A stretch of 26,779 nt of DNA from a virus (lineage: Duplodnaviria; Caudoviricetes). Below, in pieces: positions 6,204-22,426 of the stretch. The notes beneath the pieces are model-generated. The model did not search any database, was not told the DNA's origin, and worked only from the letters and a program-made list of their open reading frames with translations. Numbering within the stretch: position 1 is the stretch's first letter; each line of letters opens with the position of its first letter. The translations under genes and the position numbers were made by a program. Location of the stretch: IMG/VR virus record IMGVR_UViG_3300030433_003060, positions 1-26,779 of that record; one strand, 5' to 3'.

Positions 6204-6707
6204 ATGTTGAATAACGACGGACTAGAAATGGATGAACGCCACTTCGTCTTGCCGGACGGAGAGTGGATTAGATGGGCTCGACGGACTGTTAAGATCCCTG
6301 AGCTATTCTTGTATTACCATCGGGAGTACGGCAGTTTTGTTTTGGCAGCATGGCGAAACCAGAACCAACGCAGGTGCGTAGAGCTTCACGTACAAAACGA
6401 GCCCTTTGACCGCAAACCACTAGACCAGAACTTCCTTGAGCTTCTGTGCATGCCTATCGACGAGAAGATGGCACGCATGAAGCGTAAGTCTCGTGAGGCT
6501 AGAGCAGAAAGACACGCAGGTGCTCTTGAGTCCTCCGAGGAGAAGAAGGACATGCTTAAGTGGACGAAGCAGAAGGGCTTGGATGAAAGCCACAGAAACC
6601 TTGCAACCTCCCCGTTTGTGGGAGCACGTCAGGGCGGAGAGACGTTAGAGAGCACCAGAGACGCACTGAAGGACATGACGTCCGGAAAGATCTACAGCCA
6701 TGCATAG
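6204..6707 (+). CDS. Hypothetical protein (167 aa)
   Basis: Fills the gap after the terminator and overlaps the next start by 8 nt; globular N-terminal half and charged helical C-terminal half. The start could instead be the ATG at 6228. Confidence 0.75.
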   Translation: MLNNDGLEMDERHFVLPDGEWIRWARRTVKIPELFLYYHREYGSFVLAAWRNQNQRRCVELHVQNEPFDRKPLDQNFLELLCMPIDEKMARMKRKSREARAERHAGALESSEEKKDMLKWTKQKGLDESHRNLATSPFVGARQGGETLESTRDALKDMTSGKIYSHA

Positions 6708-7638
6708 TACCGGGTCCTTTTTGTTCTCAGTCATTGAGCGTGTCCGGGGCTACCTTGACGAGCCGTCGTCCAAGTACAGCAACGACTTTCTTGTCCGCAA
6801 CGTCATTATGCCGGAGATGGTCAACGTCCTGTCTCGCCTGTCGTTGAACTTTGACAATCCCGTTGTTGTTCGACACGCAATCTCTTTGGTGTCGGGAACC
6901 GAGTACTACCAGCTGCCTCCCAACGTAGGTGAGATCTTCCGTCTTGTTCAGATGAACAGCGACAACATTATTACCGCAGACTACAAACCTGAAGGCCAGT
7001 TCCACCCGTCCGGACCTAACTGGTCGCTTGAAGGCAACCTTCTTTCTGTGCGTCCAAAGCCAGACAAAAACCTTAGCCTCCACCTCTTCTACATTCCTAA
7101 CGGCGACTTTCTCCCCCACTACAACCAAGGGAATGGCCAGCTCTCTGCAGACCGCAAGACGCTTACCCTCTGTTTGCCATCGCAGGTAGCCGTGGGTGCA
7201 ATCGACCGTCGACCGAACTCCTACGTCGGAGCGACCCTGCGTCTGCTGAAGAACACTGCAGGCAACGCAACCGTGGTTGAGGAGCGAGTGATCGACTCCC
7301 ACACCTTGGCAGCAACCGACGCCGGCGACGACCAAGTGACTGTGCGTGTTGCGTTCGACACTTCGGCGTATGGATCCAAAACAGACATCCACTACGAGAT
7401 CGTGCCTCAAGGATTCCAGTCGTTGATGCAGGCGGTCTCCGCTGCAGCAGCCATCAACCTCGGCGTCATGAAGGATGTATCGGCCAAGAAGATGCAGTTC
7501 CTGCAACTTGAGTACCGCAAGGCGCTGAAGACTATCGGTGACAACCTGTCCTACATGCAGATGCGCAGCCCCAAGAAGTTCCAAAAGAACACTGTGGACA
7601 ATCAGGATCGCCACATCTACAGTCTTGGAATGGAGTAA
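6700..7638 (+). CDS. Putative head-tail adaptor (tail tubular protein A-like, 312 aa) with an inserted beta domain
   Basis: N-terminal helix VIERVRGYLDE, EYYQLPPN (Y-x-LP motif typical of adaptors), LSVRPKPD, C-terminal helices, and position after the capsid gene. Confidence 0.7.
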   Translation: MHSTGSFLFSVIERVRGYLDEPSSKYSNDFLVRNVIMPEMVNVLSRLSLNFDNPVVVRHAISLVSGTEYYQLPPNVGEIFRLVQMNSDNIITADYKPEGQFHPSGPNWSLEGNLLSVRPKPDKNLSLHLFYIPNGDFLPHYNQGNGQLSADRKTLTLCLPSQVAVGAIDRRPNSYVGATLRLLKNTAGNATVVEERVIDSHTLAATDAGDDQVTVRVAFDTSAYGSKTDIHYEIVPQGFQSLMQAVSAAAAINLGVMKDVSAKKMQFLQLEYRKALKTIGDNLSYMQMRSPKKFQKNTVDNQDRHIYSLGME

Positions 7639-7641
7639 GAC

Positions 7642-8124
7642 ATGGGCTTCGGATCTCGAAACACTCAAGGATCTCAGGAAGAGCAGGACTACCAACTTGG
7701 TCAGTCCATGCTTCAAGGCAACCAAAACTTCGGGGTTCGAAACTTAGCTCAGGGGGTTCCTTACCTGATGTCCGGTACGCAGGAGGGACCGTTTGCTGAA
7801 AGCCTTGACTTGGGTGCGTTTCTCAATCAGATTCGAGGAGACGATGGAGAACAAGGACCCCAAGGTATTCAAGGGAATCGGGGACCTAGAGGAGAGAAGG
7901 GAGAGAAGGGAGACAAGGGAGAGCCAGGGGTGGACGGCACCAGCCCTGTTCCGACCAACTCTCTTCAAGTAGTTACCGACGTTAGCTACAACTCCAGCAA
8001 TGGCCAAATCACGATCCACAAGAAAAACATCTTGTTGATCGAAACCCCCACTAATCCCTCCTCTGAAGTTTCAAGTGACGGCACCTCTTACCTGGTGACC
8101 ACAGCGGCGGTCTGCACGCAGTGA
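7642..8124 (+). CDS. Collagen-like repeat protein (160 aa), probable short fibre or fibre anchor
   Basis: 12 consecutive Gly-X-Y triplets, beta-rich C-terminus (VVTDVSYN...), GGAG upstream of the ATG. Confidence 0.8.
   Translation: MGFGSRNTQGSQEEQDYQLGQSMLQGNQNFGVRNLAQGVPYLMSGTQEGPFAESLDLGAFLNQIRGDDGEQGPQGIQGNRGPRGEKGEKGDKGEPGVDGTSPVPTNSLQVVTDVSYNSSNGQITIHKKNILLIETPTNPSSEVSSDGTSYLVTTAAVCTQ
7837..7944 (+). repeat. Collagen (Gly-X-Y)12 coding repeat, including a 9-nt tandem GGAGA(G/C)AAG x3
   Basis: GDD GEQ GPQ GIQ GNR GPR GEK GEK GDK GEP GVD GTS read directly. Confidence 0.92.
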
Positions 8125-10097
8125 CCCTCCGGCGTCGAGTCTATGTTGACGGGGATAGCACCAACACCGGTGCTCTCTTGATGCATGACATTGACACCAA
8201 CAGCAGCGAGGTTGGTAGCCTCAAGCGAGCTGCCTCACTCCAAGGTTGCTGCTGCTCAGACAATGCCTCACTGTTTGTAGAACTTAAGCTTTGCCCCAAC
8301 TGTGTCGCTGAAACCCAGTGCGGCTGTGGCGGCACATACGACTATCGGGCAGGCAAAGGCTCGGACTCCAACGACACAGGCTGTGGTTCTGTAGATCCCG
8401 ACACCTCTGAGTTCGAGTGTTCGGGTAGAAGCATTGGAGGATCAAACTGCACCAGCTGTGCAGACATTGACTGCGGGGCGGTGTACATACGACGAGACGC
8501 ATTCTTCTCTGTTGTGTTTGCAGAAGACTCTTCAGGCAACCCGTATTACTTCGACACTCTTCCAACCGCCAACAACTATTACGACAGCAGCACCGGCAAT
8601 CTGAGGGCCCTTCCTACTCCATACGTTGGAGTCAAAATACGACTCACACTTAACTCAGGGAAGCAGGTGGTTACCGCCGCTACCATCACCGACCTCAAGG
8701 CGCCTTTTAGTGACGTAAACAACTGCAACATTATTGACGGTATCGACGGCCTATTTGTTCGGGACTGCGCAGGAAACATTCCTCTTTACGGGAGTGGAGG
8801 ATCCGGTGTAAATGTACTCGCAAGTATCGGAGGAGCTTCAGGTACTGTCTCGAGCGGTGAAGCTTTGTGCAAAGCAATATGCGAGCACCGGTTCTACTTG
8901 GACTCTGTAGAGTGCGACCAGTCTTGTGGGTCCTGCAACTTACCCGGAAACATATCCAACGTATACAACTTCCACTCTGCTGAATTCGCCTTAGGGAAAT
9001 ACCACCTGGGGTGTTCTTCTTGCTCTGGGTGTAATCCCGCTAAAGCCAGCAACAAAGCAGTTAACACTACTGCAAGCACAACCCACTGTCTTGGCAATAA
9101 GGCTTACTTTCTAGACCCGGAAAACTCAGTGCAGGACGTAGACCCCTTCAACGTCGTTGCCGGAAACAGCAGCTACAACAACAACTCACGCTGCGGCAAA
9201 GAGTTTGACGGGGATGCTTTTGTTAGCACAAATGACTGCGGCGGTAACCCGAGCGGCGACATACAAGGTCCTTTTGCTCACCACGTCGCCATGTCAGGTC
9301 CGTTTCCTAACAGATTTGGCGGTATTGACTGCAGCATTACCTGTAGCGGCTCAGCGCAAAACAGTCCGTTTGTGGACTGCGCCAAAGCAACGAGCGATGG
9401 CCTGACCGACTGTGCCGTGCTCGGGTGTGACTGCTGCTGCGACCCTAACACCCAAAACCCTAACTCCGCTACGACATACACGATTACGTTCCCGGATCTT
9501 TCTCTTAGCGGAGGATCCTCCAACCCAATCAGTCGGAGCTTGTACTGCTGTGCCGAGGGAGTTAGTAATTGCTTTAACAGCCCGAGCGCATCAAACCCCT
9601 GCTCCGATCCGGGTCCTGGTCCTACAGGAAGCATTGTTCCTGGTGTCGATACAGACATTTGCGCCAACATAGGTACTTTGAAAGGAGGCAACTACACCGT
9701 TCAATCTTTTGGAGCTTGTCAGTGGATAGGCACTCAGAATCCCGGACCCTCAAATGGAACATATACAAATATGGGTGTTGATGTGTGTGCAGGTAATACC
9801 TGCCCCGACGGTGAAACCACTGGAACACCCAGGACTTGCGACCCGGACTTCCACAACTGCCTAGGGACTTTCCACTTCAGAATCGACGCTGCAAACATTA
9901 TTTGCTTCCCCGGTGGCAAATTCAACCTGTTTGCCTCTTATTCAATCAGCAACGACGTTACCTTTCTGGGAGCGGTTATTTGTCAATACGAGAAAGACGT
10001 TGCCTCTCCGAACCCCGCCGGCACATACACTAGTGTGTCTACCGGAACTTCTATTTGTGGTGTGAACCTAGCAACCCTTACCTGTACGGTGTCCTAA
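8121..10097 (+). CDS. Cysteine-rich protein (658 aa), putative receptor-binding or tail accessory protein
   Basis: Long ORF with GTGA overlap at the start and TAATG overlap at the end; about 47 Cys by manual count, with CCC, CDCCC and CxxCxxC clusters; rich in S/G/T/N. Confidence 0.85.
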   Translation: MTLRRRVYVDGDSTNTGALLMHDIDTNSSEVGSLKRAASLQGCCCSDNASLFVELKLCPNCVAETQCGCGGTYDYRAGKGSDSNDTGCGSVDPDTSEFECSGRSIGGSNCTSCADIDCGAVYIRRDAFFSVVFAEDSSGNPYYFDTLPTANNYYDSSTGNLRALPTPYVGVKIRLTLNSGKQVVTAATITDLKAPFSDVNNCNIIDGIDGLFVRDCAGNIPLYGSGGSGVNVLASIGGASGTVSSGEALCKAICEHRFYLDSVECDQSCGSCNLPGNISNVYNFHSAEFALGKYHLGCSSCSGCNPAKASNKAVNTTASTTHCLGNKAYFLDPENSVQDVDPFNVVAGNSSYNNNSRCGKEFDGDAFVSTNDCGGNPSGDIQGPFAHHVAMSGPFPNRFGGIDCSITCSGSAQNSPFVDCAKATSDGLTDCAVLGCDCCCDPNTQNPNSATTYTITFPDLSLSGGSSNPISRSLYCCAEGVSNCFNSPSASNPCSDPGPGPTGSIVPGVDTDICANIGTLKGGNYTVQSFGACQWIGTQNPGPSNGTYTNMGVDVCAGNTCPDGETTGTPRTCDPDFHNCLGTFHFRIDAANIICFPGGKFNLFASYSISNDVTFLGAVICQYEKDVASPNPAGTYTSVSTGTSICGVNLATLTCTVS

Positions 10098-10456
10098 TGA
10101 AACTAGAAACAATCAACTGTCCACATTGGAGCAAAGGCTCCTGTCTCCGAGGTTACTACGGAGGGCGACCCTCTCCTGGGACGTGTCAACTTGTTTGCCC
10201 TGAGTACCGCATCCACAATGCGTCAGAGGCTGAACCCGTAGTCGCTGCGGTGCCCCCCAAGGTACGACAGTATAGGTGGTGCCCCAACCACCGTGGAGTT
10301 GGAGATACCGTCAAATGGGCAATCAAAGTTGTCTCCTTTGGCCTAATCAAGCAGAAGAAAGACTGCGGTTGTAAGAACAGACAGAACTGGCTGAACCGCA
10401 AGTTCCCGTATCCTTGGAGAGACTGTGCCGAACGTAGACGCAAAGTGGACCATTGA
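10097..10456 (+). CDS. Small basic Cys-motif protein (119 aa; G-x-GD...CGC-x-x-RQ-x-x-LN...FPY)
   Basis: The ATG at 10097 overlaps the upstream TAA (TAATG) and is preferred over the 10055 start in the ORF track. Motifs CPHW...C, CQLVC and GVGDTV...DCGCKNRQNWLNRKFPY. Confidence 0.8.
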   Translation: MKLETINCPHWSKGSCLRGYYGGRPSPGTCQLVCPEYRIHNASEAEPVVAAVPPKVRQYRWCPNHRGVGDTVKWAIKVVSFGLIKQKKDCGCKNRQNWLNRKFPYPWRDCAERRRKVDH

Positions 10457-13400
10457 CCTATCCCAGCCTTCCGGGGATAAGTCTGTACCTCGTACTGCTG
10501 TCGGCAAAGGGTTACTTAGCGAGCTGACAGGTCACGATGGATCCCTTCAGGGGGGTGTACGTCCACACCCTGGCTTCCGGTTTATCAAAGAACTGAACTT
10601 TGACGCGTACGACCATACTGCGGATGGGACCAACGACAACCAGTACGACCTTACCTCCTATCAGGTAGTAGCCGACAACCACGACCAACGATCAGAAGTT
10701 ACCGACATTTTCCCCGTCACCTTCATGCGGGGCACCAGCTCTACCTGCTACGGCTACGTCTATCGCGCAAAGCGACACACCTCAGCAGCTACTAACGGCG
10801 CAGCCAACATTAACTTTACGGGCACAGGCACCCAGACAGCCAGCGTCCAGTCACTGACCCTCAACTCTGGAGGAACCTACCCTGCAGCGGTAGATGACCA
10901 AGTGGTTCAGGTTAGGGACACGCTGGGCAATGAGGAAGAGTTTGTTTTCCGAGATGACGGAGTAAACTCAACGGGAACTGTAGTCAATGGTCAGGTCGTA
11001 GTCCAGGTCCAGAGCGTGACTGCTGTTAACGACGTAGCCACCCAACTGAAGACAGCAATCGACGGGGCATCTGCGATCAACGTAACCGCTACGGTATCCA
11101 CCAACGTGGTGACTGTAACTCAAGATATTGCAGGATCCTTTATTGGACCCACACGAGAGCGGGCAACAAGCACTACCTCAAACATTGTGGCGACAGTTAA
11201 AACGCCTGGGCAGGACGGACTGTACACTGGCAAGACCCTTACACTTATCGACAACAGTAGTCCCTCTAAGACTGTCACATTTACCGGCACCAACGTACTA
11301 TCCAGTGGGGGAGCCAGAGTATCTGCAACTGAATACAACTTCTCGACTCGAGGAGCAAGTCAGACTGCAGCGAATATTGTGACTGCTCTTGCTGCGGCTA
11401 TCGACTTGGCGGACACCAACGGCGAGCTTGACATTGAGGCTACTGCTAGCACCGCACAGCTCCAGCTGACTCAGGACACCGCAGGTGCAGGAGGCAACAC
11501 TGCAATATCGGGAACTCTGATTGCAGCAAACATTGTTGACAATACAAGTCTTTCATTTACAGGAGGTTCTGGAGGATCTTTGTCGGATGTATTTATCGAA
11601 TACTACGACACCAAAGCAGCAGCGCATTACTCCCCCAACAGTCCTCACGCTCCAGGGGCAGACGCTATACCGGTGAACTACACCGCCAACCTATTGATGA
11701 TGAGCTGCAGCTCGACGGAGCCGATGCAGGTCAAAACCCTCGGGCGTCTTGTGTATGTGTTTGTGCGCGGGCGCTCGCCGTCAGTGTTCTTTCTTGATGG
11801 AGAGAATGACGCCGACAGTGCTGAGTTTAGAGGCGGCACGGTGTTTGGGGTTACTGGAGACACTACTTCTCCAGGGCAGACAGGACTTCCAGGGCCTGGC
11901 ATCCAACCGTCATTCAGAGACGGAGATGGAGGAGCAGAGTTAGGTTCCTTCCCTCGACCTCTCGACACAAGCAATCAAGCAGGTGTTGGACACATTCAGC
12001 TTTCAGTTAGAACTGCAGAAGACGAGGACTTCTTTGCGCTAGACCAGCCCTCGTTTGTCGGTGAGGATGGTTCATCAACCGTACCTACCTCTGCAATCAA
12101 ACGCACGGTTATCACGGGAGACTCTGCTTCCGTAAACATTGCATCTCAGAACTACGGCAGCGGAGGCACGCCTCTTACCTCAGGGCAGCGACTTTATGTC
12201 GTGGTGTCGTTTACTGCTTGTCCTGATGGAGGAGTGAAGCTAAGCAAAGCTACTCCAGGATTTGGAGAGAGTAAGATTCAGCCGTACGCAGAGGTGTACT
12301 TTTCCACTGCTGCTGACGGGACAGGCACCGTGTACAACTTTACACCTGCGCCTTCTGCTTTTTCCAAAGCAGCTCAGAACGGAGGACTTGTTTCGGAGAC
12401 CGCTGAAGGATCAGACTTTGTTTATGACTACATACAAGTCTTTGAGTCTCCGTCGTTTACCGACTTGAAAACCTCTGCGTTTGGGGGCGACGGATCACAA
12501 AACGCAACCAACCTTTACGCCCACGTGCGGACACGAGACGGCGATGGGAACCTTATTTCTAATACGGAGATGGTTGGGGCTGCAGGAAACCTTGGAGGTA
12601 TGTGCATCCGGGTGTTTACTGCATCTAACGTTCTTGAGACTCAAGGGACTTCAATCGCCAACGGAGGCAACGTGTTCTACTCCTTTACTGATATGGGGTC
12701 GGACTCTAGCGGACAAAGAACTCCAGGTATTGCAACAGATGGAACCCAACAATACTCAAGCCGATTCCTTCGGAACTCTACGCTTCCTGTTCTGACCCAA
12801 GACTTTAAGTCCCACATTATCAGGGCAACTTCCTACATCACTGAGCTCAACACCTCTGACCTTACCTCTGGGGCGTATGGCAGTGTGATTGACGCTGTGA
12901 ACTACGGGGTTGCAGGGGCAGAACTTATTGAGGCTGACTTCTACGGATCGCAGGATGCCTTCAACTGGGCGGATGTGAACAGCACAGATACCCGAACTAA
13001 TGCTTCGTTGGGTACCCGAACTGTAGGTTCTGACACCTACACCACCATTGCAAACATGATTAGCGAGGGTGTAGGACAGCAGGCGTTTGAGGGGGAGAAT
13101 GTAGACATTCGGCTGGGCACCCCAATCGACAGCCGTATGGTCATCAAGACCTTTACCAGCGATGACCCTACCGGTGACGGCACTGACGACTACCAAGCTA
13201 GAGGCAAGGCACACTCTTGCTTGTTTGAGCTGGTCGGAGCAAAGAGTGTCTTTGCTGCGGGGCAGTCTGACTACACCGGAAGCGACACCGCAGTCCTAGA
13301 TTTCTTGGGGAATGTAGACACAAACAACAATGTCAACACGGGCTTCCTTATTGAAGCTCGCTTGCCTCTTGAAGAAGCAGAGAACGTAAGCAACACTATC

Positions 13401-15830
13401 AAGCTGAAGTGGAGCGGTAGGTTCTCGGGCACTACTAATGCGGGACGGCCTGAGATTGAGTACGACGTTTACTGGCGAGACGGTTTGTCTGACAACCCCG
13501 CACTGTATCGGGTCAACGGACAACGCTTGACAGAAGAAGAGTTTGATATTGCTTCTTTGTATACAGGAAGCAGCCTTCCCAGCGGACGAGAGTTTGAGTG
13601 GGCAGTGACTGCATACGCCACTATTAACGGAACAGAGTATTACGTTAGCAGTGGAGTGTTTAACTTTACAACCGACAACATCTTTGAGGCTACCCGGCTC
13701 AAGCGAGGCAACTACGCATTTGCCTACCAACTGTTTGACTCCAAGACTGGGCGCATGTCTAGCTTGTCCGAGATTGCAAGGATAGAAAGAGACGGGTTTG
13801 CACTGAAACCGTTTGGTCGAGACGCCAGCTCCGGCCGGGAGTTCCCACTTGACGACCCTATCCGAAACTTGATTACACGATATGTAGTCACTGCTCGAGG
13901 CAGAAACAAATATGCCGCCGCAGAGATTGTGTATGACAGCACCAAGTATGACCACTGCTTCTTCTACCGATCCCCCAAAACGGAAGAGGAAGGTAAGCAG
14001 TTCGCAGGATCAACTTTGTTCTTGGACAAGATGATCAAGCTTGAGGACTACCACACCACAGACAACAAGACAACTACCCAAGCCAACGCAGGCAGTCCTG
14101 TTGCATCTTTGAACGACGGCTTGTCCAACCGCTCGCGTGCGATCTTCTACTACAGCTTGAACGACGAAGAGATCTTATACCGTCCGTTCTACACTGGACC
14201 TACACGGTTTGACGAGAAGATGCCGTCCTCAGGAGCAGCAGAGTTCTTGGACAACATCTTGATCCAAGCAGATATTGACACCGAAGAAGCGAGCGCAAAC
14301 TCAGAAGAGGCGTACTCGACGGACGCATATCGCGGTGGGGGAGAAACCAAGTACTCTCAGACCGATCGGTACGCTCCGGAACTTCATCCTCCTGCTAACC
14401 AATACACGCCCTCTGACCCAGGTAACCGACTCAAACTGCTAAAGAGAGTGGGGCCCAACGTCGTAGGCTTGAGCTCTGATCGTATGTACCACTTCCGACG
14501 TGAAGGAACGATCGTTGTTCGAGAGTTCCACGAGGGCTTGGTGGGCGTGGTCGGCTCCCACGCTGCGGACGTTGCGGCGTCTCAGTTGTTTGTTGTTTCT
14601 CCGAAGGGGGTCAAGATCATCGGCACCAATGGTTCTTTGGACAACATGACCGCTTTGGACTTGTTGATTAAAGAAACTTTTGTCGATGGACTAGAGGACA
14701 TGCGGGTTGCATTTGACTCTTACGAGTCGGCCCTGTACTTCTTCCACCCCGGACAGAAGAGAGCAGCAATCGCATGGTTTGAAACTTCTTGTATGACAGA
14801 ACTGCAAGATCTTCCCTTTACCGATGTAAAGGTAGGGGATGTTCCTCGAGACGAAGTGTTTGCAGGAGCGTCGGGCTACACCCCCGACTTTGCTGGCGAC
14901 CGAGTCAAACGAGCAGTGTTCTTGCAGAACCACCCTGACCTGGCCAACCTTTCCGCAGGCACCACTTGGAAGCCCAAGTTGTTTGTGGCCAACGACGACC
15001 GGACACGCAAAGCTCTTGACCACGACGGGTCGTCTACCTTTAGTCAGCAGGTAGGGTCACGTAGAACCTTGCTGGATATCATTGGGCGGACTCACTACAC
15101 AGTCGGGTCTTACAATCAAGGCAGTCAAATTTTGTTTACGACTGAGAAGTCCTCATTGGACACAGACGCTCGAAGCACTCCTGCGGAGAACAGCTACATC
15201 GGAGCGTTCTTGTACTGCATCGAAGACTCTACACTTCCTAACAACGTAGGAACAAAGTCTCAGATCGAAAGCGTAGTGTCCAGCGGCACGAATGTGAGCT
15301 TTGTGATGGCAGACAACGGATTCAAAAGCCTTAGCGCAGGAGCAAAGGTGGGAGTGAGTCCAGTGTTTATGGAAATCACTGCTCACCAAGTAGGCACTCC
15401 CACTAGGACAACGGCTGGAGAAGGTGAGATAGAGAATGTCCACAACCTGAAACAGATCGACGACATTAAGGCTACGTTCTTGGATGTTGACGTTCTGACC
15501 CTCGTCAGCAATGTGGATTCAAACAACGCATCGACAGCAGTCAAGTTCCAAGGGATTATCTATGAAGGCAATGACAACACTCCTGAGCACAAGGCAGTTC
15601 CGGTAAAGCCGGACGGGACACAAGTTAGTTCTATTGTTGACGGGTCTTCTACGTTCCCAGTTTCTTTCGGAGGATCCGACACTTTCAGTGGTGTGCAAGG
15701 CCCGCTGGGCTTCACACTGACTCCTGGTGTCCGCATCTTCACCCCAGATGTGGACTTCAGGCTGATCAGTTTCCGTTGCTCTGGTCAGACCTTTGACACT
15801 GAATCCTCTGAGGTATACACCCAGTCATGA
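10425..15830 (+). CDS. Large tail protein (1801 aa), probable nozzle / tail tubular protein B-like with multiple inserted domains
   Basis: GTG start with GGAG upstream; N-terminal GGVRPHPGF, YAFAYQLFDSKTGRMSSLS, and propeller-like strands in the C-terminal third (LFVVSPKGVKII, VAFDSYESALYFF); lies between the adaptor and the internal virion genes. Confidence 0.7.
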   Translation: MPNVDAKWTIDLSQPSGDKSVPRTAVGKGLLSELTGHDGSLQGGVRPHPGFRFIKELNFDAYDHTADGTNDNQYDLTSYQVVADNHDQRSEVTDIFPVTFMRGTSSTCYGYVYRAKRHTSAATNGAANINFTGTGTQTASVQSLTLNSGGTYPAAVDDQVVQVRDTLGNEEEFVFRDDGVNSTGTVVNGQVVVQVQSVTAVNDVATQLKTAIDGASAINVTATVSTNVVTVTQDIAGSFIGPTRERATSTTSNIVATVKTPGQDGLYTGKTLTLIDNSSPSKTVTFTGTNVLSSGGARVSATEYNFSTRGASQTAANIVTALAAAIDLADTNGELDIEATASTAQLQLTQDTAGAGGNTAISGTLIAANIVDNTSLSFTGGSGGSLSDVFIEYYDTKAAAHYSPNSPHAPGADAIPVNYTANLLMMSCSSTEPMQVKTLGRLVYVFVRGRSPSVFFLDGENDADSAEFRGGTVFGVTGDTTSPGQTGLPGPGIQPSFRDGDGGAELGSFPRPLDTSNQAGVGHIQLSVRTAEDEDFFALDQPSFVGEDGSSTVPTSAIKRTVITGDSASVNIASQNYGSGGTPLTSGQRLYVVVSFTACPDGGVKLSKATPGFGESKIQPYAEVYFSTAADGTGTVYNFTPAPSAFSKAAQNGGLVSETAEGSDFVYDYIQVFESPSFTDLKTSAFGGDGSQNATNLYAHVRTRDGDGNLISNTEMVGAAGNLGGMCIRVFTASNVLETQGTSIANGGNVFYSFTDMGSDSSGQRTPGIATDGTQQYSSRFLRNSTLPVLTQDFKSHIIRATSYITELNTSDLTSGAYGSVIDAVNYGVAGAELIEADFYGSQDAFNWADVNSTDTRTNASLGTRTVGSDTYTTIANMISEGVGQQAFEGENVDIRLGTPIDSRMVIKTFTSDDPTGDGTDDYQARGKAHSCLFELVGAKSVFAAGQSDYTGSDTAVLDFLGNVDTNNNVNTGFLIEARLPLEEAENVSNTIKLKWSGRFSGTTNAGRPEIEYDVYWRDGLSDNPALYRVNGQRLTEEEFDIASLYTGSSLPSGREFEWAVTAYATINGTEYYVSSGVFNFTTDNIFEATRLKRGNYAFAYQLFDSKTGRMSSLSEIARIERDGFALKPFGRDASSGREFPLDDPIRNLITRYVVTARGRNKYAAAEIVYDSTKYDHCFFYRSPKTEEEGKQFAGSTLFLDKMIKLEDYHTTDNKTTTQANAGSPVASLNDGLSNRSRAIFYYSLNDEEILYRPFYTGPTRFDEKMPSSGAAEFLDNILIQADIDTEEASANSEEAYSTDAYRGGGETKYSQTDRYAPELHPPANQYTPSDPGNRLKLLKRVGPNVVGLSSDRMYHFRREGTIVVREFHEGLVGVVGSHAADVAASQLFVVSPKGVKIIGTNGSLDNMTALDLLIKETFVDGLEDMRVAFDSYESALYFFHPGQKRAAIAWFETSCMTELQDLPFTDVKVGDVPRDEVFAGASGYTPDFAGDRVKRAVFLQNHPDLANLSAGTTWKPKLFVANDDRTRKALDHDGSSTFSQQVGSRRTLLDIIGRTHYTVGSYNQGSQILFTTEKSSLDTDARSTPAENSYIGAFLYCIEDSTLPNNVGTKSQIESVVSSGTNVSFVMADNGFKSLSAGAKVGVSPVFMEITAHQVGTPTRTTAGEGEIENVHNLKQIDDIKATFLDVDVLTLVSNVDSNNASTAVKFQGIIYEGNDNTPEHKAVPVKPDGTQVSSIVDGSSTFPVSFGGSDTFSGVQGPLGFTLTPGVRIFTPDVDFRLISFRCSGQTFDTESSEVYTQS

Positions 15831-16850
15831 GCCAGTTCAACAGCCCATTTGTGCCACCATCACTGCCTGGAATGGGTACCCCTGAGTACACACCGGGAGC
15901 TCCTGGTCAGCTCCGTCAAACGGGAGTTCGTGCTCAAGACGGAAGCCTGTACACCAGCCAAGACACGTTGAATATGGCTCAGGGTCAACAGGGATTTGTT
16001 GACCTCGGAACCATGTTCAATCAGGCACAGCAGGGCCAGCAACAGATTATTGACCAGAGCAACCAGTTCCGGACTGATCTCATGGAGCAGTTCTCTCCTG
16101 GTTTTGAAACCTCCATGAGCGTTTTGAGCGACCAAGCCCAGGGCATTGGTTTGACGGACATCGGGGCAGCAAAAGAAGAAAGCATTAACTACCTCAAAGA
16201 AGGTATTCAAGGCTCAAAAGATGCCATCCAAACAGGAGAAGCAAAAGCCCTAGATGCGATAGAGTCGGGCATGGACGCGTCCCGAGACTCTTTGAAAAAG
16301 TCTCGTGCTGGAGCAATGGCGGCACAAGCAATCAACGCAGGGCGTCAAGCAGGAGAGCAGTCCAACCAAATTGCTGCCCAAATGTCTGCTAGCGGTGCGT
16401 CCCCCGCTCAGATTGTGAGTGCTCAGATGGATGCAGACCGAGACAGAAGCGCCGCAGCAGCAGCAAACATTTCGCAGACCGGGGCTCAATACGACCAAGC
16501 GATTGCCGGAACCTTCCAGACTCAAGCACAGCTTGAAGCAGGCACTATCCAGAACTTCACTCAGATGTTCTCGGATGCTTCGATGCAAGGCGGGATGGCT
16601 CTTAACCAAGCCAATCAAGTGTATACCCAAATGGAAACAGCACAGGATGCTTTGAGTCAACAAGCAGCGACGGCTCTTGCAAACGCATCTGCTACGGGCA
16701 GTCAAGCAATGATCAGCATTATTCAAGCGTTCCCGCCCGCAGCTCTCGACATGCTTGGCCTAACAAGTAACCTGTTCGCTGTTGCACAAACAATTCACGC
16801 TGCCGGCTACAACACAGGCATGAATCCCCCAACCTCATGAGCCAGTTCAA
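15825..16850 (+). repeat. Exact 16-nt direct repeat TCATGAGCCAGTTCAA at 15825-15840 and 16835-16850
   Basis: Read directly; each copy spans a stop/start (ATGA) gene junction. Confidence 0.9.
15827..16840 (+). CDS. Putative internal virion (DNA ejection/pilot) protein (337 aa)
   Basis: Q/A/S/M-rich helical low-complexity sequence with no Cys or Trp; directly after the nozzle gene; ATGA overlaps at both ends. Confidence 0.7.
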   Translation: MSQFNSPFVPPSLPGMGTPEYTPGAPGQLRQTGVRAQDGSLYTSQDTLNMAQGQQGFVDLGTMFNQAQQGQQQIIDQSNQFRTDLMEQFSPGFETSMSVLSDQAQGIGLTDIGAAKEESINYLKEGIQGSKDAIQTGEAKALDAIESGMDASRDSLKKSRAGAMAAQAINAGRQAGEQSNQIAAQMSASGASPAQIVSAQMDADRDRSAAAAANISQTGAQYDQAIAGTFQTQAQLEAGTIQNFTQMFSDASMQGGMALNQANQVYTQMETAQDALSQQAATALANASATGSQAMISIIQAFPPAALDMLGLTSNLFAVAQTIHAAGYNTGMNPPTS

Positions 16851-18645
16851 TCCACAACAAGGCGGTCCTCAGCAACCACAAATGCAGGGGAATAACCAAG
16901 CATTCCAAGCGTTGCAGGCTAAGGCTATGGAAAAGAAAGGCGCTGCACTGTCTGCTTTTCAAAATAGCCAGTCAAGGTTTTCGTCTCAAGGTATGGGCAT
17001 TGCTCGTGACTTGGTGAGCCAGTCATATCAAGGAGAGCTCGGGCCTACAGCCGGCCTTGCTGCTGAAGGTTTGCCAGGAGAGTTTGCACGGTTCACACCA
17101 GGCACCGACTTGTTCAAGCGACACCAGCAACTCCAAGCGGAGCGCAGAGCAACCACCCGCCAACACAACCGAGAGCTGGGCAAGATTCAAGCCGAGATTA
17201 CAGGTCTGGGACAAAACAAAGCCAACCGACAACAAGGCTTCCAACGGGTGCTCCAGCGATACGCAGGGGAGATGACCAACACCCAAAGCTCACAAGCACT
17301 GATCGGAGGCTTGACAGATGCTATCAACCAGAAGCAAGACCGACTGATGATGCTTTCGGGTGGGGGAGTACTCGGCCTTGGTGCATTCGGAACCGGAACG
17401 GTAGGCACAGTCGGAGGCGGTATGGGTGAGCGGATCCAGCAGATCATGGCCACCCAAGGACTTTCTCGATACCAAGCAGCCAAGCAACTGATGGAAGTCC
17501 CTGGCCAAACCATGCAGAACAACGTCACCGATAGGAATATATTTGGTGCTGTTGGGGACTTCTTCCAAGGGGTGGGGGAGTCTCTTGGTTTCGAGGGTGG
17601 AAGTCTTTTGGCTGCTGCAGGACTGGTTGGCATATTCGCCATTACAGGACCTATCTCAACGATTATTGGTGCAGGTCTTCTTGCAACAGGTGCAACAGGA
17701 CTTAATACCTTTGGGGACGACACCCTTGAGGAAGTGAATGAAAGTGTGACGGAAGCGATGAAGAGCTTCCGGGCTGAAGACCACGTTGACGCTACTCTGC
17801 AAGCCAACCTTTTGGTGGTGTCGGAAGAGATTGCCAAAGTCTCGGGGAAAGGAGCTGCAGGGGCGGAGGCTGTGTTTGACGGGATGAACCAGCTAATGGA
17901 GGCCATCGGCAAGAGCACCAACCCAAATGACCAAGATGTGATTGCCATCATGGACAAAGTTGCAGAGCTCAAAGAGACCGCAGGCGTCAGCCTCGAGCAG
18001 TTGTATCACGGACTTGTAGCAGCAGAGAATGCCTCGGATGCTCGGAGATCTAGTCTGTACTCTAGCCGTTCGCAACTCCAAGCTGCGATCGGACAAGCAG
18101 GCAGGGTTGCAAACACGGAAGAACAACGTCTTGCCTTGCAGGTTTTTGAGCAGGGGGAACAACTAGAGTCTCAAATGAAACGTAAGTTGACTGCAGCACG
18201 AACACTCTTGGAGGCTGCAGGAGACAAAGTTACCAACCCCGAGCTTCGTTTCTACGAGGCTAGCGAGCGGGCACAGGCAGCAGAGGACATCTTGGATGGC
18301 ACGCTTGACGGATTGATCCGTCCGGACGGCAGCATCACCGAAGAAGCAGAAGAGTTGTTTTCGATCATTGATCCAAATGTTGCGTCGAAGCTTCGTGAAT
18401 TCTTGGACAAGAAGGCAACTGAAGAAGCCGAACTTCTTGAGTTGGAGGCTCGACAAACAGAACTGGGTGAACTGCTTGACCCTGCCCTGTCTCCCGAAAT
18501 TGCTGAGTACGAAGCTGAGCTGGCGGATCTGATGCAGCAGAACACAGAACGCAACATCGAGATTCAACGAGAGCGAGATACTGAGAGTCAAATCATCACT
18601 TCTCTTATGAACCAGATTGATGCAAACATGCAGGGATTGCGATGA
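16837..18645 (+). CDS. Putative internal virion (ejection) protein (602 aa) with Gly-rich hydrophobic segments and coiled coils
   Basis: Q-rich N-terminus, hydrophobic stretch SLLAAAGLVGIFAITGPISTIIGAGLLATGA, acidic coiled-coil C-terminus. Confidence 0.7.
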   Translation: MSQFNPQQGGPQQPQMQGNNQAFQALQAKAMEKKGAALSAFQNSQSRFSSQGMGIARDLVSQSYQGELGPTAGLAAEGLPGEFARFTPGTDLFKRHQQLQAERRATTRQHNRELGKIQAEITGLGQNKANRQQGFQRVLQRYAGEMTNTQSSQALIGGLTDAINQKQDRLMMLSGGGVLGLGAFGTGTVGTVGGGMGERIQQIMATQGLSRYQAAKQLMEVPGQTMQNNVTDRNIFGAVGDFFQGVGESLGFEGGSLLAAAGLVGIFAITGPISTIIGAGLLATGATGLNTFGDDTLEEVNESVTEAMKSFRAEDHVDATLQANLLVVSEEIAKVSGKGAAGAEAVFDGMNQLMEAIGKSTNPNDQDVIAIMDKVAELKETAGVSLEQLYHGLVAAENASDARRSSLYSSRSQLQAAIGQAGRVANTEEQRLALQVFEQGEQLESQMKRKLTAARTLLEAAGDKVTNPELRFYEASERAQAAEDILDGTLDGLIRPDGSITEEAEELFSIIDPNVASKLREFLDKKATEEAELLELEARQTELGELLDPALSPEIAEYEAELADLMQQNTERNIEIQRERDTESQIITSLMNQIDANMQGLR

Positions 18646-18986
18646 CCGACTGGAAGGGATCAGTAAAAAAGCTTGTGACCGACTTCGATGACAAGAAGGG
18701 CGCAGCTGTACTGGTAACTCCCCCACTGGAGGGGCGCTCTTCTCCTGTGCAGGTAACGCAAGACGAGCACACTCTGCAGTTCGAAGGCTCAAAGATTACA
18801 CCCAAAGCTGTACGGAAGTGGCTGTGGGAACAACGTGAGTGCAGAGCACTGAAACGATCTGGTGCTTTTCTGTTTGCTAACTACAACGAAGAAGACGACA
18901 AGACCTACGTAGGTATTGGGGCTCTTGCTTCCGAAGCTGCTGCGGTGCGACTGGTTGAACGACGAACACGCGAGGGACTGGTATGA
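18642..18986 (+). CDS. Hypothetical protein (114 aa)
   Basis: ATGA overlaps at both ends; globular alpha/beta-like composition. Confidence 0.78.
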   Translation: MTDWKGSVKKLVTDFDDKKGAAVLVTPPLEGRSSPVQVTQDEHTLQFEGSKITPKAVRKWLWEQRECRALKRSGAFLFANYNEEDDKTYVGIGALASEAAAVRLVERRTREGLV

Positions 18987-21160
18987 CTCAGTTTACACTG
19001 CCTGGTTTTGACACCCCACTGAATGTCTTGAACGGAAGCTTCTTGCCTACTCAAGGGCCTGCGTTTAGAGGCAGCGTCCGCGACCGACGCGCTCTCCAGT
19101 CTATTGCCATGGCTCCCTCAGAGATTATGGATGAGCTTGCAATGATGTCAGATGACATCGCAGACGACGCGTCGGACCTTCTTAGGTCAGGGGATGTAAA
19201 AGGCATGCGTGCTCGTATGGCTGCTTCTGAGATTATGTCAGGTAGCCCTATAGGTGGTATGGGTCGTCGCGGCGGCATGGGAGTCCAAGTTCTTGATGCT
19301 CTTGAGGACCTTGCACAGAAAGACTTGCACCCTCGACTGTTGGAAGCAGGGTTTACTCCTAAAGATATCCCCGAGGGTATCGGTCGAGAGCAGATGAATG
19401 ACGTCATGCGGGAGATCGACGGAGGCACCAAGGCGGATAAAGACAAGGCACTCAAAGCCCTGAAGAAAATGAAGGGCTCTTTGGGGGCCGGAGGCATCCC
19501 TGGGAATGTGCCCAAAGCTGCTCAAGACCTGATTGAGGCATCGGGTCTCGCAACAGGAAAAGAAGCTCAGCAGTTGGGACGAGCGATCCAAGTTCAGATT
19601 GCTGACGACTTTGCAGTAAGAAATCAGTTCTTCGAACCGGGACGAGCAACCTCTGCTTTGAATCAAGGGGCCGGAGTAGGTACTGGGTCACGTGGCAACC
19701 CTGCGGCTCTTCGCCGGTCAGCCAACCCACGAGCAGGTACTGTGGCTTTGTCCTCGATGGAAAACGCTGCGGACATGCCTTTGTTCCAACAAGCAGCCCA
19801 GCAACAACGAGCAGCTCGAATTGCAGCTGATGCCGCTGCCGGCAGACCTGTAGGTCCAATGCCTATGGGCAGGACTTTTGCTCCGAATGTTCTTCCTGTT
19901 GAAGGAGCAGGAGAAGGAGCGAAACAACTTGCACAATTCGAATCTCGAATGCCCCGTGTCGGCGTTGGTCAACCTCTCACTCCCAACCAAATCAGATCAG
20001 GTCTTTTCTCTGGAAGCATGAACCCTGCCGCTCTCGTGGGCCGTGAAGGACAAGCTCTTGCCTCGATGAGTCCTGAAGTTCTTGCGCAGTCGGGTGTTCC
20101 TGGGGGAGCACCTCCTCCAATCGCTGGTCGAAGCCCCGGAACTTTCCTTGCTTCACGACCGCAGACTGATGATGTCGCACTTGCCTTGCGTGGGGAGATG
20201 CAACAAGGAGAACAATTTGGCACCGGTCAAGCCGATGACGGCAAACCTACAGGACAATCAAAGCCTGGACGGGAGGGTAAGACACCCGGCGTTAGCAAAG
20301 CAGACAAGCAGCGAGCTCAAGCTCTCCAACGACGCATTACTGAAATCAAAAACTTCAAGCCCACCAAGGCACAGGCTGCATCTCTAGGGTTGCCGGACTC
20401 CGCTGTGGGCAAGGCAATCTTTGCGGATACACCTGACGATGTGGTCTTGCGTATTGCACGTGCGTCGGTGGATCAGGATGACGCAGTAGCCGCAACCGCT
20501 GCAAGATCTAGAGGTCAACGGGCGCTTGGGGGTACTTCACGAACTCCTCGAGAGATTGTTCTGAATCAAGTGCCTGGCACCAACCAGTTTGTCCCTCCAG
20601 GAGACGCTGCAGATGTGGGCGGTGCTGGAGGTGGCGGTCGTGGCGGCGGCGGTGGTGCTGGAGGCGGTCGCGGCGGTGCTGGAGGCGGAGGGCAAAAAGC
20701 ATTACCTGCACCCAAAAAACTGTCTTTCTTCCAACAGTTGAAGAGCCCTGCCGGACGGAAGGCGTTGAGGGAGGCTGCTCTGAAAGGACTAGGCAGATTC
20801 ACTACAAGCATGGGCGGTGGTTTGGGTCTTGCTGGTCTGGGCCTGGGGTTTGCATTCTTGGTTAGTGATGCAGTCGCACGTCGTAACCAACGGGTGCAAG
20901 AGATTCAAGGACTGCAGTTGGGACTGGCAAACGATGCTCGTGCCCGCATGTCTCCCCTGATGCAGTTGCAAGGAGCACGACAAGGCGCAAGCGAGCTGCG
21001 CGGACTTGCTGCCCTGTCTGAGGTGCCCCGTCAAGTGACACAACAAGAAGCAGAACTTGCTAGTCTGTTGGGCAGAAGCGGAGCGTATGCGGCTCAGCAG
21101 TCTGCAGTGGCCCCGCAAGGCGCCATGATGGCACAGCAACGAGTAGGCGGAATGATCTAA
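18983..21160 (+). CDS. Putative internal virion (ejection) protein (725 aa), G/A/R/P-rich
   Basis: Long low-complexity ORF with a poly-Gly/RGG tract, hydrophobic segment GLGLAGLGLGFAFLV near the C-terminus, overlaps at both ends. Confidence 0.68.
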   Translation: MTQFTLPGFDTPLNVLNGSFLPTQGPAFRGSVRDRRALQSIAMAPSEIMDELAMMSDDIADDASDLLRSGDVKGMRARMAASEIMSGSPIGGMGRRGGMGVQVLDALEDLAQKDLHPRLLEAGFTPKDIPEGIGREQMNDVMREIDGGTKADKDKALKALKKMKGSLGAGGIPGNVPKAAQDLIEASGLATGKEAQQLGRAIQVQIADDFAVRNQFFEPGRATSALNQGAGVGTGSRGNPAALRRSANPRAGTVALSSMENAADMPLFQQAAQQQRAARIAADAAAGRPVGPMPMGRTFAPNVLPVEGAGEGAKQLAQFESRMPRVGVGQPLTPNQIRSGLFSGSMNPAALVGREGQALASMSPEVLAQSGVPGGAPPPIAGRSPGTFLASRPQTDDVALALRGEMQQGEQFGTGQADDGKPTGQSKPGREGKTPGVSKADKQRAQALQRRITEIKNFKPTKAQAASLGLPDSAVGKAIFADTPDDVVLRIARASVDQDDAVAATAARSRGQRALGGTSRTPREIVLNQVPGTNQFVPPGDAADVGGAGGGGRGGGGGAGGGRGGAGGGGQKALPAPKKLSFFQQLKSPAGRKALREAALKGLGRFTTSMGGGLGLAGLGLGFAFLVSDAVARRNQRVQEIQGLQLGLANDARARMSPLMQLQGARQGASELRGLAALSEVPRQVTQQEAELASLLGRSGAYAAQQSAVAPQGAMMAQQRVGGMI
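20618..20692 (+). repeat. Gly-rich coding repeat GGAGGGGRGGGGGAGGGRGGAGGGG
   Basis: 25 codons containing three copies of GGTGCTGGAGG. Confidence 0.85.
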
Positions 21161-21609
21161 TGTTTTCACAGATGCCCAAACTAGCACAGGGGATCCTCGG
21201 AGCCGAGTTGGGGGTGGGTCTTGCAATGCCCATGATGTACGACTCAAGGTCCGGGGTGGGCCGTGGAGTGAAGGACTTCCTCGCGCCTGGAAAGATGGAT
21301 GGTCTGCGGCAAATGGCTGCTCTTGCTTCTACCGAGCGAGGACAGCGAGCCCTATACAGAGCCAATAAAAGAAAGACTGAGTTCCAAGCCCTGCAGGCCA
21401 GCATGGCTCAGAGTTTGGCGCGTTTGGCGGCAGCGAGCCCTCAAACGTATAACCAAGTAATGGCGGGTCGACAACTTCCGCAAGGTGCGGTGGTGTTAGG
21501 AGGGGCCCCCAGAGTCGACCTTATGGAAGACTTGGCGCTGCGTATGGCGTCAAACCCTCAAGCTATCCCGGGCGCCCCAGCCCAACCCTCTGTAATGGAT
21601 TTGATCTAA
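21160..21609 (+). CDS. Hypothetical protein (149 aa), possibly a small internal virion protein
   Basis: TAATG overlap; Gly-rich hydrophobic N-terminus (GILGAELGVGLAM), A/Q/M-rich helical remainder. Confidence 0.72.
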   Translation: MFSQMPKLAQGILGAELGVGLAMPMMYDSRSGVGRGVKDFLAPGKMDGLRQMAALASTERGQRALYRANKRKTEFQALQASMAQSLARLAAASPQTYNQVMAGRQLPQGAVVLGGAPRVDLMEDLALRMASNPQAIPGAPAQPSVMDLI

Positions 21610-21619
21610 GGAGTTTACT

Positions 21620-22012
21620 ATGGCTGGTGAAGCCCTACGTTTGCCGTTTGAAGGCGTCAATGATGCCTCATTTGTTATCAACGCCCAGCTCGCTTCTGGT
21701 GCCGCGACCGTCTTTCTCGGTTCAGTCCCTGTTGACTGCGTCGTCGAGCGGATTACTGAGCGTCATGCAACAAAGCAAGGCGCTACATCTAACATCGTCG
21801 TGAAGGGAGCCGCTTCTGGTACTGCTATTGCTTCTGGCACTGCTCTCCACAGCGGCAACTTGGACGGCGACAATACAAACGATACCGTTCAGTTTGCAAC
21901 CATTGACACAGACAACAACAAGCTGACTGCTGGTTCCGTGATTGGTGCTACTCTTTCCGCACACGACACGATTGCCAACATCTCGTTCAGCATCATCTGT
22001 CGGCCTGTTTGA
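21620..22012 (+). CDS. Small beta-rich structural protein (130 aa), putative head decoration/spike; paralog of 22025-22426
   Basis: AGGAG at 21609-21613; T/A/S/G-rich beta-strand pattern; alignable by eye to the next gene. Confidence 0.72.
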   Translation: MAGEALRLPFEGVNDASFVINAQLASGAATVFLGSVPVDCVVERITERHATKQGATSNIVVKGAASGTAIASGTALHSGNLDGDNTNDTVQFATIDTDNNKLTAGSVIGATLSAHDTIANISFSIICRPV

Positions 22013-22024
22013 TAGGAGTTACTA

Positions 22025-22426
22025 ATGCCAGGTGAAAAACCAATTCCAGTAGATACATTCCCAGATGTGCTCCAATACATCTCGGTTAATCTTGCCCAAG
22101 ACGGAGCAGGAGACGCATCGGCTGACCAACCAATCTTTCATTGCGAAAGAGATACGGTCGTTGACGCTGCTTTTATCCGTTGCGCAACCGCTGACAGTGA
22201 TGCAACAATTACGTTGAAGCATTTCACCACAGGAAACGTGACGGACGGCACCGCTTTTTCTAGCGCTGCTGCCTTGAGCGCTACTGCGGGAACTGTTATC
22301 CCAGTGACGATCACTGACACCGCTAACGTTATTCCTGCAGGAGACGCTATCGGTGTTGATTTCACTAACACTTCAACGGCTGAAGGCGTCAATGTGACTC
22401 TCCGGATTCGCACGAAGCGTAAATGA
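22025..22426 (+). CDS. Small beta-rich structural protein (133 aa), putative head decoration/spike; paralog of 21620-22012
   Basis: AGGAG at 22014-22018; shared motifs D-x-VV...R-x-AT, GTA-x-x-S, N-x-x-x-AG-x-x-IG. Confidence 0.72.
   Translation: MPGEKPIPVDTFPDVLQYISVNLAQDGAGDASADQPIFHCERDTVVDAAFIRCATADSDATITLKHFTTGNVTDGTAFSSAAALSATAGTVIPVTITDTANVIPAGDAIGVDFTNTSTAEGVNVTLRIRTKRK

Follow-up and report, generated by a model that had tools for sequence, protein, structure and literature searches.

In the T2/T6-like Straboviridae a monomeric variable tip, gp38, is carried on the trimeric fiber gp37 and is encoded by the next gene, according to the accessible text of the source (PMC12032242). A covalent one-on-three connection is described in the available part of a report on the cyanophage Pam3, in which one Cys from each of the three chains of the trimeric fiber gp24 is bonded to three Cys within a loop of a single chain of the wedge protein gp23 (PMC9942802). 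Disulfide cross-links may also extend across the virion, as in Jabs and Milano, whose particles—adhesion parts included—are assembled in the cytoplasm; and the accessible text on Jabs leaves open how those bonds are catalyzed (10.64898/2026.07.24.740622; Milano as cited therein). The available text of such recent structures of disulfide-linked phage virions states as an open question how the bonds arise, whether inside a reducing cytoplasm or once it has been left. Regarding assistance to protein maturation, Pam3 gp25 is a tail fiber chaperone (PMC9608196), poxviruses and mimiviruses possess thiol oxidoreductases of their own (cited in PMC13576161), and a CXC-helix peptide substitutes for PDI in yeast (10.64898/2026.01.27.701630), each as given in the accessible portion of its source. 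Within the open-access literature we found no description of phage-encoded disulfide-bond machinery, nor one of the module reported here.

Gene layout and protein features

The window—the whole stretch of DNA analyzed, 26,779 nucleotides of a Caudoviricetes virus (IMG/VR record IMGVR_UViG_3300030433_003060)—contains a three-gene cassette on the + strand, A-B-C, whose GTGA and TAATG overlaps, as read in the sequence, denote translational coupling. The features are as follows:

6700..7638, +: adaptor-like gene, upstream context outside the module (Pfam SU10_adaptor, E 0.0023, below the cut-off)
7642..8124, +: gene A, 160 aa, likely forming a trimeric stalk; its C-terminal part is rich in beta structure and ends in the only Cys
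7837..7944, +: collagen repeat of A, 12 G-X-Y triplets, residues 66-101 (Pfam Collagen)
8113..8115, +: codon of the terminal C158 of A, present in P0014-P0019 too
8121..10097, +: gene B, Cys-rich putative tip protein of 658 aa with 47 Cys (an odd number) and a net charge of -29, lacking a hydrophobic leader
8121..8255, +: first 45 residues of B, its head, in which three short strand-like segments picked out visually (TLRRRV, GALLMH, and GSLKRA) precede the CCC encoded at 8247-8255
9426..10094, +: residues 436-658 of B, its C-terminal domain, starting with CxCCC and ending with P-x-G-x-Y plus a terminal beta strand (TCTVS)
10097..10456, +: gene C, candidate helper, a small basic protein of 119 aa with 8 Cys and a net charge of +14
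10118..10198, +: four-cysteine domain of C, marker of the module (C8, C16, C30, C34; C-x2-G-x-Y-G-G-x-P-S-x-G-x-C-x3-C)
10364..10372, +: CGC dithiol of C, located where a helix (residues 92-102) is predicted to begin
10425..15830, +: downstream 1801-aa gene, context, taken for the nozzle solely on account of its position (neither a family nor a structure matched)

The preliminary description had reported the coupled genes, the terminal Cys of A, the CCC of B, and the CxxxC and CGC motifs of C, all of which the sequence bears out. C158 is invariant in the 7/7 aligned A proteins and the CCC (residues 43-45) in the 9/9 aligned B proteins, as that description had expected; and of the 8 Cys of C, among them C30xxxC34 and C90-G-C92, six are kept in 60/60 aligned proteins, so that these features of the cassette are not attributable to chance. 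The other 16 genes examined in the window have Cys contents of 0-1.9%. The flanks had been named as adaptor and nozzle: the first label is a weak one (18.9 bits, the cut-off being 27), and the gene served as the anchor for our search of close relatives; the second is positional, since searches of Pfam, PHROGs, NCBIfam, and PDB sequences left the 1801-aa product unmatched.

In A, C158 is the sole Cys and the third residue from the end, so that the conserved Cys sits at the C-terminus and not at the N-terminal, baseplate end. The protein matches Pfam Collagen (PF01391; E 2.6e-7, 30.7 bits against a cut-off of 27.2), which match places it among the collagen-like phage fibers, and the repeat, present in the window's clade, points to a trimer. 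Five relatives of A bear two further Cys, absent from the window's A and from that of locus L006, and the tail of the window's A matched no other A group. Among the A genes of loci found via the C domain, 2/38 contain collagen, which element—previously taken as part of the system—is therefore incidental, and was rejected as a defining one.

B, with 7.1% Cys, has no family in Pfam or PHROGs, the gp38-type family with its glycine-rich motifs and hypervariable segments being likewise unmatched there; nor did the ESM Atlas return anything for it. The Cys triad of the head is invariant while the other Cys of B vary, and is retained in Cys-poor B proteins too. The called B genes had a median Cys content of 6.4%, versus 0.9% in 452 other ORFs; and B was acidic in 40/43 representatives and C basic in 42/43. 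Any family match was obtained in only 1/35 other B proteins, and consisted in a lectin-like insert; an insert in the B of L011 resembles ConA-like lectins, at a level below the cut-off (E 4e-5). Between the window's B and that of the Verrucomicrobia-type analogue no significant profile similarity was detected (E 0.12; C-terminal parts, E 0.03), the two loci being linked by the common gene C and the common pattern. A fold search with the analogue B model gave at best a VIA Z of 4.1 (rmsd 3.2, 62 aligned) and nothing in Foldseek at E <=0.001, which null, obtained with a model whose head is of low confidence, does not make the fold new. The PAAR fold had no Pfam match in B, and its fold search was that same one with the analogue.

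Predicted joint between A and B

For the analogue phage L109, of the Verrucomicrobia type, a model of three A chains with one B chain reached a score of 0.73, the best of 3 controls being 0.04; the score mark was attained by 116/157 solved complexes and 2/215 mismatched pairs, counts that apply only roughly to the L109 job. The runs agreed in at least 97% of the contacts, with a partner pLDDT of at least 83, and the interface comprised residues 83-88 of all three A copies together with residues 1-23 of B, with the cysteines located at it. Residues 3-5, 9-12, and 15-18 of B each contacted a different A copy; the B head modeled alone was poorly ordered (pLDDT 51-53). The segments of the window's B head, which we read by eye, and the CCC are arranged like the head capping the A trimer in the L109 model. 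From that model, the trimeric A stalk is predicted to carry one B chain, a monomer, at its tip, and the three A Cys would be bonded to three Cys of that single chain. Of the earlier proposal that a trimer of terminal Cys is joined to the CCC protein, the three-to-one joint agrees with the analogue model and with the parity given below, whereas the collagen and the dedicated CGC protein that formed part of it do not stand.

Cysteine parity and paired gains

The Cys count of B was odd in 104/144 proteins (72%) and, by cluster, in 82/114 at 50% identity (p 3e-6) and 56/82 at 35% (p 0.001); the window's clade gave 12/14, and two later sets a weaker excess (23/34 and 25/37). That of C, for its part, was even in 119/128. 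Within clades the counts of B step by two (5, 7, 9, 11; 45-53), while the extra Cys of C were gained in distant pairs (C62/C110 in 3 rows, another pair in 16), the gains in B being paired too. The odd parity fits external links of B, and it is from this parity and the paired gains that we infer the links to be disulfides. A metal site having an odd number of B ligands would be equally compatible with the odd parity.

Distribution of the module

The four-cysteine domain of C marks 149 loci (56 clusters) in both podophage and siphophage layouts, and 20/24 of its matches in bacterial genomes fell within the Planctomycetota or Verrucomicrobia; pattern matches lacking extra cysteines had been dropped (3/119 viral, 30/54 genome). 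Close relatives of the window had A followed by B in 6/6 instances, and C in the 5/5 that were long enough. When the scan was anchored on C, B was called in 41/46 cluster representatives having no less than 1.5 kb of upstream sequence, and when anchored on A a CC-headed B was called in 37/39, B calls requiring the CC motif and these figures being thus partly circular. With B as the anchor, a small Cys gene came next in 37/41 (1 with none, 3 too short), in a set from which stop-bearing or short frames were dropped and six members set aside by hand, L244 and L252 being restored for the motif and parity counts. In the C-anchored scan a Cys lay within the last 5 residues of the adjacent gene in 19/38 cases, versus 25/452 other ORFs; in five of the other loci that we inspected the terminal-Cys gene lay 2-5 genes upstream of B, and in L098, L146, and L114 none was seen nearby. 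A and B were coupled in 35/43 representatives. The co-occurrence and order of the three families, as anticipated in the preliminary description, were thereby recovered in unrelated phage layouts from all three anchors: the pattern extends well beyond a single phage, and the module is widespread.

A genome scan with the close alignment confirmed 0/112 candidates. The possibility of a core host gene was rejected, since matches came from 3/401 genomes sampled in the phylum of G001, and two of these matches were partial and contained stops.

The candidate helper gene

No family was named for the window's C beyond a weak unnamed PHROG (Pfam, PHROGs, NCBIfam, and PDB sequences); neither a thioredoxin nor an Erv family matched it in Pfam, NCBIfam, or PDB sequences, and the tail fiber assembly chaperones (Tfa, T4 gp38, Pam3 gp25) showed no sequence match. 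In the ESM Atlas all hits were to viral clusters without a name (<0.9). Annotated phages contained no full-length match, one such search (61 records) matching mainly the DUF6171-like part. The window's C has itself no match to DUF6171 (PF19668), although the relatives L098 and L134 score above the cut-off, and DUF6171/phrog_13558 replaces the helper or is fused to it in many cassettes; the term DUF6171 was not found in the open-access literature searched. The model of C was weak (pLDDT 67.8, pTM 0.33), with C90-G-C92 preceding the helix, and its only matches, none better than E 0.03, were to small viral proteins that are uncharacterized. A CGC shuttle of Erv2 was not relied upon, PMC3401233 giving no confirmation of it.

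The domains of C—four-Cys, CGC, and DUF6171-like—are interchangeable, and in many cassettes the CGC is replaced by DUF6171-like or SGCC tails. Since the CGC-RQ-LN domain occurred without a long Cys-rich gene upstream in 49/64 loci, and stands alone in unrelated phages as well, it is not dedicated to the module, contrary to what had been supposed; and we rejected CGC as a defining motif on those grounds, together with the replacements. A C-terminal dithiol is nevertheless kept in 126/128 C proteins, with CxC and CxxC interchanging there.

In the A-anchored set a helper followed 31/31 Cys-rich B genes and 0/6 Cys-poor ones, the 2.6% cut having been chosen afterwards and the six Cys-poor B genes looking like one clade; the helper therefore tracks the Cys-rich body of B and not the A-CCC joint. 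The rule for calling a helper was positive in 4/371 control genes, and in L138 the gene ahead of the helper encodes 914 aa, contains 1% Cys, and lacks a CC. The P-x-G-x-Y and the terminal strand of B were found in 28 and 30/51, respectively, of those with a four-Cys domain, in 4 and 2/18 with other helpers, and in 0 and 3/8 with no helper. B and C were coupled in 41/43 representatives, C occupying the position directly after the tip gene, as in tail fiber chaperones. A crude hydropathy scan revealed no hydrophobic leader on A, B, or C, for which reason periplasmic export is not favored.

Discussion

The reading towards which we lean, on balance, is that B caps a three-chain A stalk by way of three A-B Cys bonds, and that C binds B and aids the pairing of the other Cys. 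As judged from the analogue model, the N-terminal head of B would constitute a three-strand pseudo-trimer, with one strand per chain of the stalk that A would form, and this strand pairing would place the terminal Cys of A beside the Cys triad of the head. The links would be disulfides—three between A and B, plus internal pairs within B—and B would serve as a variable host-binding tip. In the weakest step of the proposal, the basic C would dock on the acidic B via the four-Cys domain, and the dithiol of its CXC-helix would form or shuffle the disulfides of B, either toward the end of assembly or upon lysis.

The bacterial cytoplasm is reducing, a circumstance that counts against a disulfide proposal.

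The same joint might be accompanied by a C without catalytic role, as a structural virion subunit clamped on the C-terminal domain of B, which explanation we deem possible if doubtful: the B motif and the terminal strand go together with the four-Cys domain (28 and 30/51), the charges of B and C are opposite, and the distant paired gains in C resemble those of an oxidized structural protein; but the helper domains are interchangeable, 126/128 retain the C-terminal dithiol, and the helper is missing where B is Cys-poor. A metal-based joint appears unlikely to us. Three A Cys and one B Cys would there coordinate a Zn-type ion lying along the three-fold axis, the body of B would be composed of metal sites, and C would be a metallochaperone—an arrangement that suits the reducing cytoplasm, the absence of leaders, the Zn-finger-like CxxC/CxxxC pattern of C, and an odd parity fitting 3+1 ligation, and that has a counterpart in the PAAR/gp5.4 spike caps, in which a PAAR fold with bound Zn covers a trimeric beta-helix. 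The stepping of Cys counts by two within clades and the extra Cys in distant pairs speak against it, as do the disulfide-linked tail parts documented, in the accessible text of those reports, for Pam3 and Jabs.

That B instead continues the stalk as a trimer, each chain linked to one A chain (3:3), would accord with one external link per chain, as the odd parity allows, and with the trimeric state of most phage receptor-binding proteins, as given in the available part of PMC12032242; we consider this quite improbable, however, because in the L109 model one B chain suffices for the three A positions, and the Cys triad is invariant amid varying other Cys and survives in Cys-poor B. Finally, B and C might be a non-virion cargo pair inserted among the tail genes and unrelated to A, given that in many siphophage loci they lie 0.6-2.7 kb away from A and that some MAG copies adjoin host-like genes (L221). 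The A-B coupling in 35/43, the enrichment of terminal Cys, the passing L109 A-B model, and the absence of export leaders render that explanation scarcely credible.

As far as the accessible texts on the known systems go, the capped stalk that we favor resembles gp37/gp38 in its proposed monomeric variable tip, encoded by the next gene, on a trimeric stalk; but gp38 is non-covalently attached and has glycine-rich motifs, whereas B is packed with Cys, bears a Cys triad on a head of the strand type, is accompanied by a third gene, and lacks a family match. With Pam3 it would share a bonding pattern in which the same Cys from each chain of a trimer is linked to one of three Cys in a single partner chain, although the Pam3 bonds tie the N-terminal end of the fiber to the baseplate and those proposed here would join the C-terminus of the stalk to a distal tip through adjacent cysteines. 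The Jabs and Milano networks span capsid and tail, whereas here the Cys are confined to one module with its own candidate helper. As a small gene directly behind a fiber or tip gene and accompanying a hard-to-fold client, C recalls Pam3 gp25 and T4 gp38/gp57, and differs from them in being defined by Cys motifs, in tracking the Cys content of its client, and in having no family match. Like the poxvirus and mimivirus oxidoreductases, C is a candidate virus-encoded aid for disulfides of virion proteins, albeit without a thioredoxin or Erv family match; and like the CXC-helix isomerase peptides it would bear its CXC dithiol at a helix start, according to its weak model.

We advance more tentatively a broader formulation, namely that phages of the Planctomycetota and Verrucomicrobia may have a portable three-gene system for disulfide-stapled, hypervariable, monomeric adhesins, in which a pseudo-trimeric Cys-triad head would plug covalently onto any Cys-ending trimeric stalk and C, as a minimal CXC-helix isomerase that docks on its client, would be the first disulfide catalyst encoded by a bacteriophage. 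The module names a likely host-binding protein family for the phages of those two phyla, and offers a candidate covalent one-on-three protein joint that is simple to test along with a small, clonable candidate for disulfide formation in phages, for which the sister phages with a Cys-poor tip and without the helper constitute a natural minus control.

Organization of the module in the window

The window spans 26.8 kb of a phage found in marine metagenomes, and its terminase, adaptor-like and tail genes share one strand. The preliminary description had reported there a Cys-centered layout of three genes, which arrangement—the Cys motifs and the GTGA and TAATG overlaps between the genes included—we likewise see in the sequence:

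Gene A, 7642-8124: likely trimeric stalk; single Cys at A158
Gene B, 8121-10097: Cys-rich, predicted tip protein; 47 Cys, CCC at 43-45
Gene C, 10097-10456: small putative helper; 8 Cys

Compared with this Cys-rich module, the other 16 genes of the window contain 0-1.9% Cys. The flanking labels stand less firmly, the adaptor being weakly supported and the nozzle a label by position. That presumed nozzle (10425-15830) measures 1801 aa in the window versus 1461-1607 aa in four relatives, and so accepts large insertions. In sharp contrast to the module, five genes (337, 602, 725, 149 and 1264 aa, within 15827-21609 and 22423-26217) have no Cys and are Gln/Gly/Ala-rich; these products we take to resemble internal ejection proteins. 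Two adjoining genes of ~130 aa (21620-22426), alike in beta-rich make-up, are possibly paralogous decoration proteins, and no family matched them in the Pfam and PHROGs scans.

All six loci found via the adaptor encoded a collagen protein whose third-last residue is Cys, followed by a CCC gene; and gene C was present in 5/5 of those long enough to show it. Among the close relatives, B identity descended to 22% with the CCC and a terminal strand still kept. The A of five relatives had two additional Cys, both absent from the A of the window and of the retrieved locus L006.

Distribution and marker of the family

The A-B-C arrangement is genuine and occurs widely. Scanning with gene C retrieved 64 loci. 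Full-length C was present in nine, each time behind a CCC gene, and four of these nine combined a siphophage layout with an A that lacks collagen and terminates in SCT. Another six carried a different long form, behind a giant gene with 4-6% Cys; the remaining 49 had the CGC domain without a long Cys-rich gene upstream, and therefore the marker of the module is the N-terminal four-Cys domain of C. With the DNA pattern of that domain, 119 viral loci were retrieved, 116 of which proved true members, together with 54 loci in genomes. The 24 true ones among these 54 are labelled Planctomycetota (18), Verrucomicrobia (2) or others (4), from which taxon labels we would infer the host of the window phage. 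The domain was rare in Planctomycetota genomes (3/401 sampled), as is expected of a prophage gene.

The 149 family loci fell into 56 clusters. By a rule that demanded a CC motif, B was called in 41 of the 46 representatives having enough upstream DNA, with a median Cys content of 6.4% versus 0.9% in 452 other ORFs. The gene adjoining B ended in Cys in 19/38 instances, against 25/452 of the other ORFs, and contained collagen in only two of the 38, so that collagen, proposed earlier as part of the module, does not belong to its general definition. In five other inspected loci the terminal-Cys gene lay a few genes upstream, itself preceded by genes that by eye resemble those of a tape measure and a hub; three more loci did not show it.

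Several variants accompanied these scans. Many low-GC phages (L017-L070, e.g., L017:4876-5040) encode a stand-alone CGC-domain protein of 48-96 aa without a Cys-rich neighbor. The large phage contigs L016, L019, L021, L024 and L032 join the CGC domain to another kind of Cys cluster, in a gene that comes after proteins of up to ~1800 aa with 4-6% Cys; and L145:5944-7149 shows the helper domain in fusion with a 400-aa protein having a weak glycosyltransferase-2 match. L221:5664-7219 and related Phycisphaerae MAG loci present the trio amid host-like genes, and phage structural genes were not seen within those loci; the trio there would be a domesticated copy or else mark the edge of a prophage.

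Reciprocal anchoring

A-B-C was recovered from the C, B and A anchors alike, thus bearing out the proposed co-occurrence and order of the three families. Among 41 unique B genes anchored by the head motif, 27 were followed by the four-Cys domain and 10 by a small Cys protein of DUF6171-like type, one having nothing next and three being too short. From the A-tail motif, a CC-headed B was found at most 2.7 kb away in 37/39 loci; in those 37, the helper was present with 31/31 Cys-rich B and 0/6 Cys-poor B (a 2.6% cut, chosen afterwards), and the helper-calling rule matched 4/371 control genes. Since the six Cys-poor B genes, which appear to form one clade, retain CCC directly behind A without a helper, A accompanies the CCC and C the Cys-rich body of B; L138, where a Cys-poor gene is followed by a helper, is a counter-example.

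In L330 the B head, in a gene ~1430 nt after A, opens with IDGxC, resembling its own A tail, and has CxxCxC in place of CCC. The B of L011 (3386-5989) contains a ConA-like lectin insert between head and body, which indicates that B accepts whole domains.

Predicted A-B joint

We modelled L109, a Verrucomicrobia-type analogue with the deepest alignments. Three A plus one B scored 0.73 versus 0.04 for the best control, the score mark being reached by 116/157 solved complexes and 2/215 mismatched pairs, which counts are only roughly valid for this job. Runs agreed in at least 97% of contacts, with partner pLDDT of at least 83; the strands at B residues 3-5, 9-12 and 15-18 each paired with a separate A chain, and the interface contained the B triad (the CCC or CxCC motif of the head) as well as the terminal Cys from each of the three A chains. 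Modelled alone, this B was well folded except for the head and gave no clear match to known folds in fold searches. The multimer proposed for the window is accordingly predicted in the analogue; since the homology between the two B proteins was non-significant by profile comparison, its carry-over to the window is our extrapolation. The window B head has, as read by eye, three similar strand-like segments ahead of CCC.

The predicted one-B-on-three-A joint would resemble gp37/gp38, described as a monomer atop a trimeric fibre tip (PMC12032242), in its monomer-on-trimer arrangement; and Pam3, in which a trimer is described as bound to a single chain by three disulfides (PMC9942802), is a precedent for the proposed three A-B disulfides. 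We found no account of the module in the open-access library searched, and the predicted joint is a new, covalent-looking variation on a known design.

Cysteine chemistry and the helper

The Cys count of B was odd in 104/144 unique proteins, in 82/114 clusters at 50% identity and in 56/82 at 35% (42/49 in the discovery set; ~68% in later sets), while that of C was even in 119/128. The CxCC triad was invariant in 45/45 Verrucomicrobia-type B, with four further Cys nearly so; additional Cys arise as pairs, each of which may be a single event. Such counts would fit disulfides within the protein together with either one link or three to the outside, though metal binding by the Cys may be equally compatible with them.

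The helper is the most interesting part of the module. Its C-terminal dithiol was retained in 126/128 proteins (CGC 64, CC 36, other CxC 13, CxxC 13), and within 43 B/C pairs 40 of the B proteins were acidic and 42 of the C proteins basic; the model of C was weak, with a helix beginning at CGC. CXC-helix peptides, CGC and CRC included, are reported to have isomerase activity in vitro, and peptides of this type to substitute for PDI in yeast (10.64898/2026.01.27.701630); both motifs also occur in the helper family. Jabs is described as having disulfides virion-wide, their catalysis being left open there (10.64898/2026.07.24.740622), and PMC13576161 states that dedicated machinery for disulfides has not been described in phages. 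Among the readings of gene C, that of a candidate catalyst or redox chaperone is, on balance, the probable one. Cyanophages and Stenotrophomonas phages that have been cultured also encode the DUF6171-like helper domain, an occurrence that could permit a test in culture.
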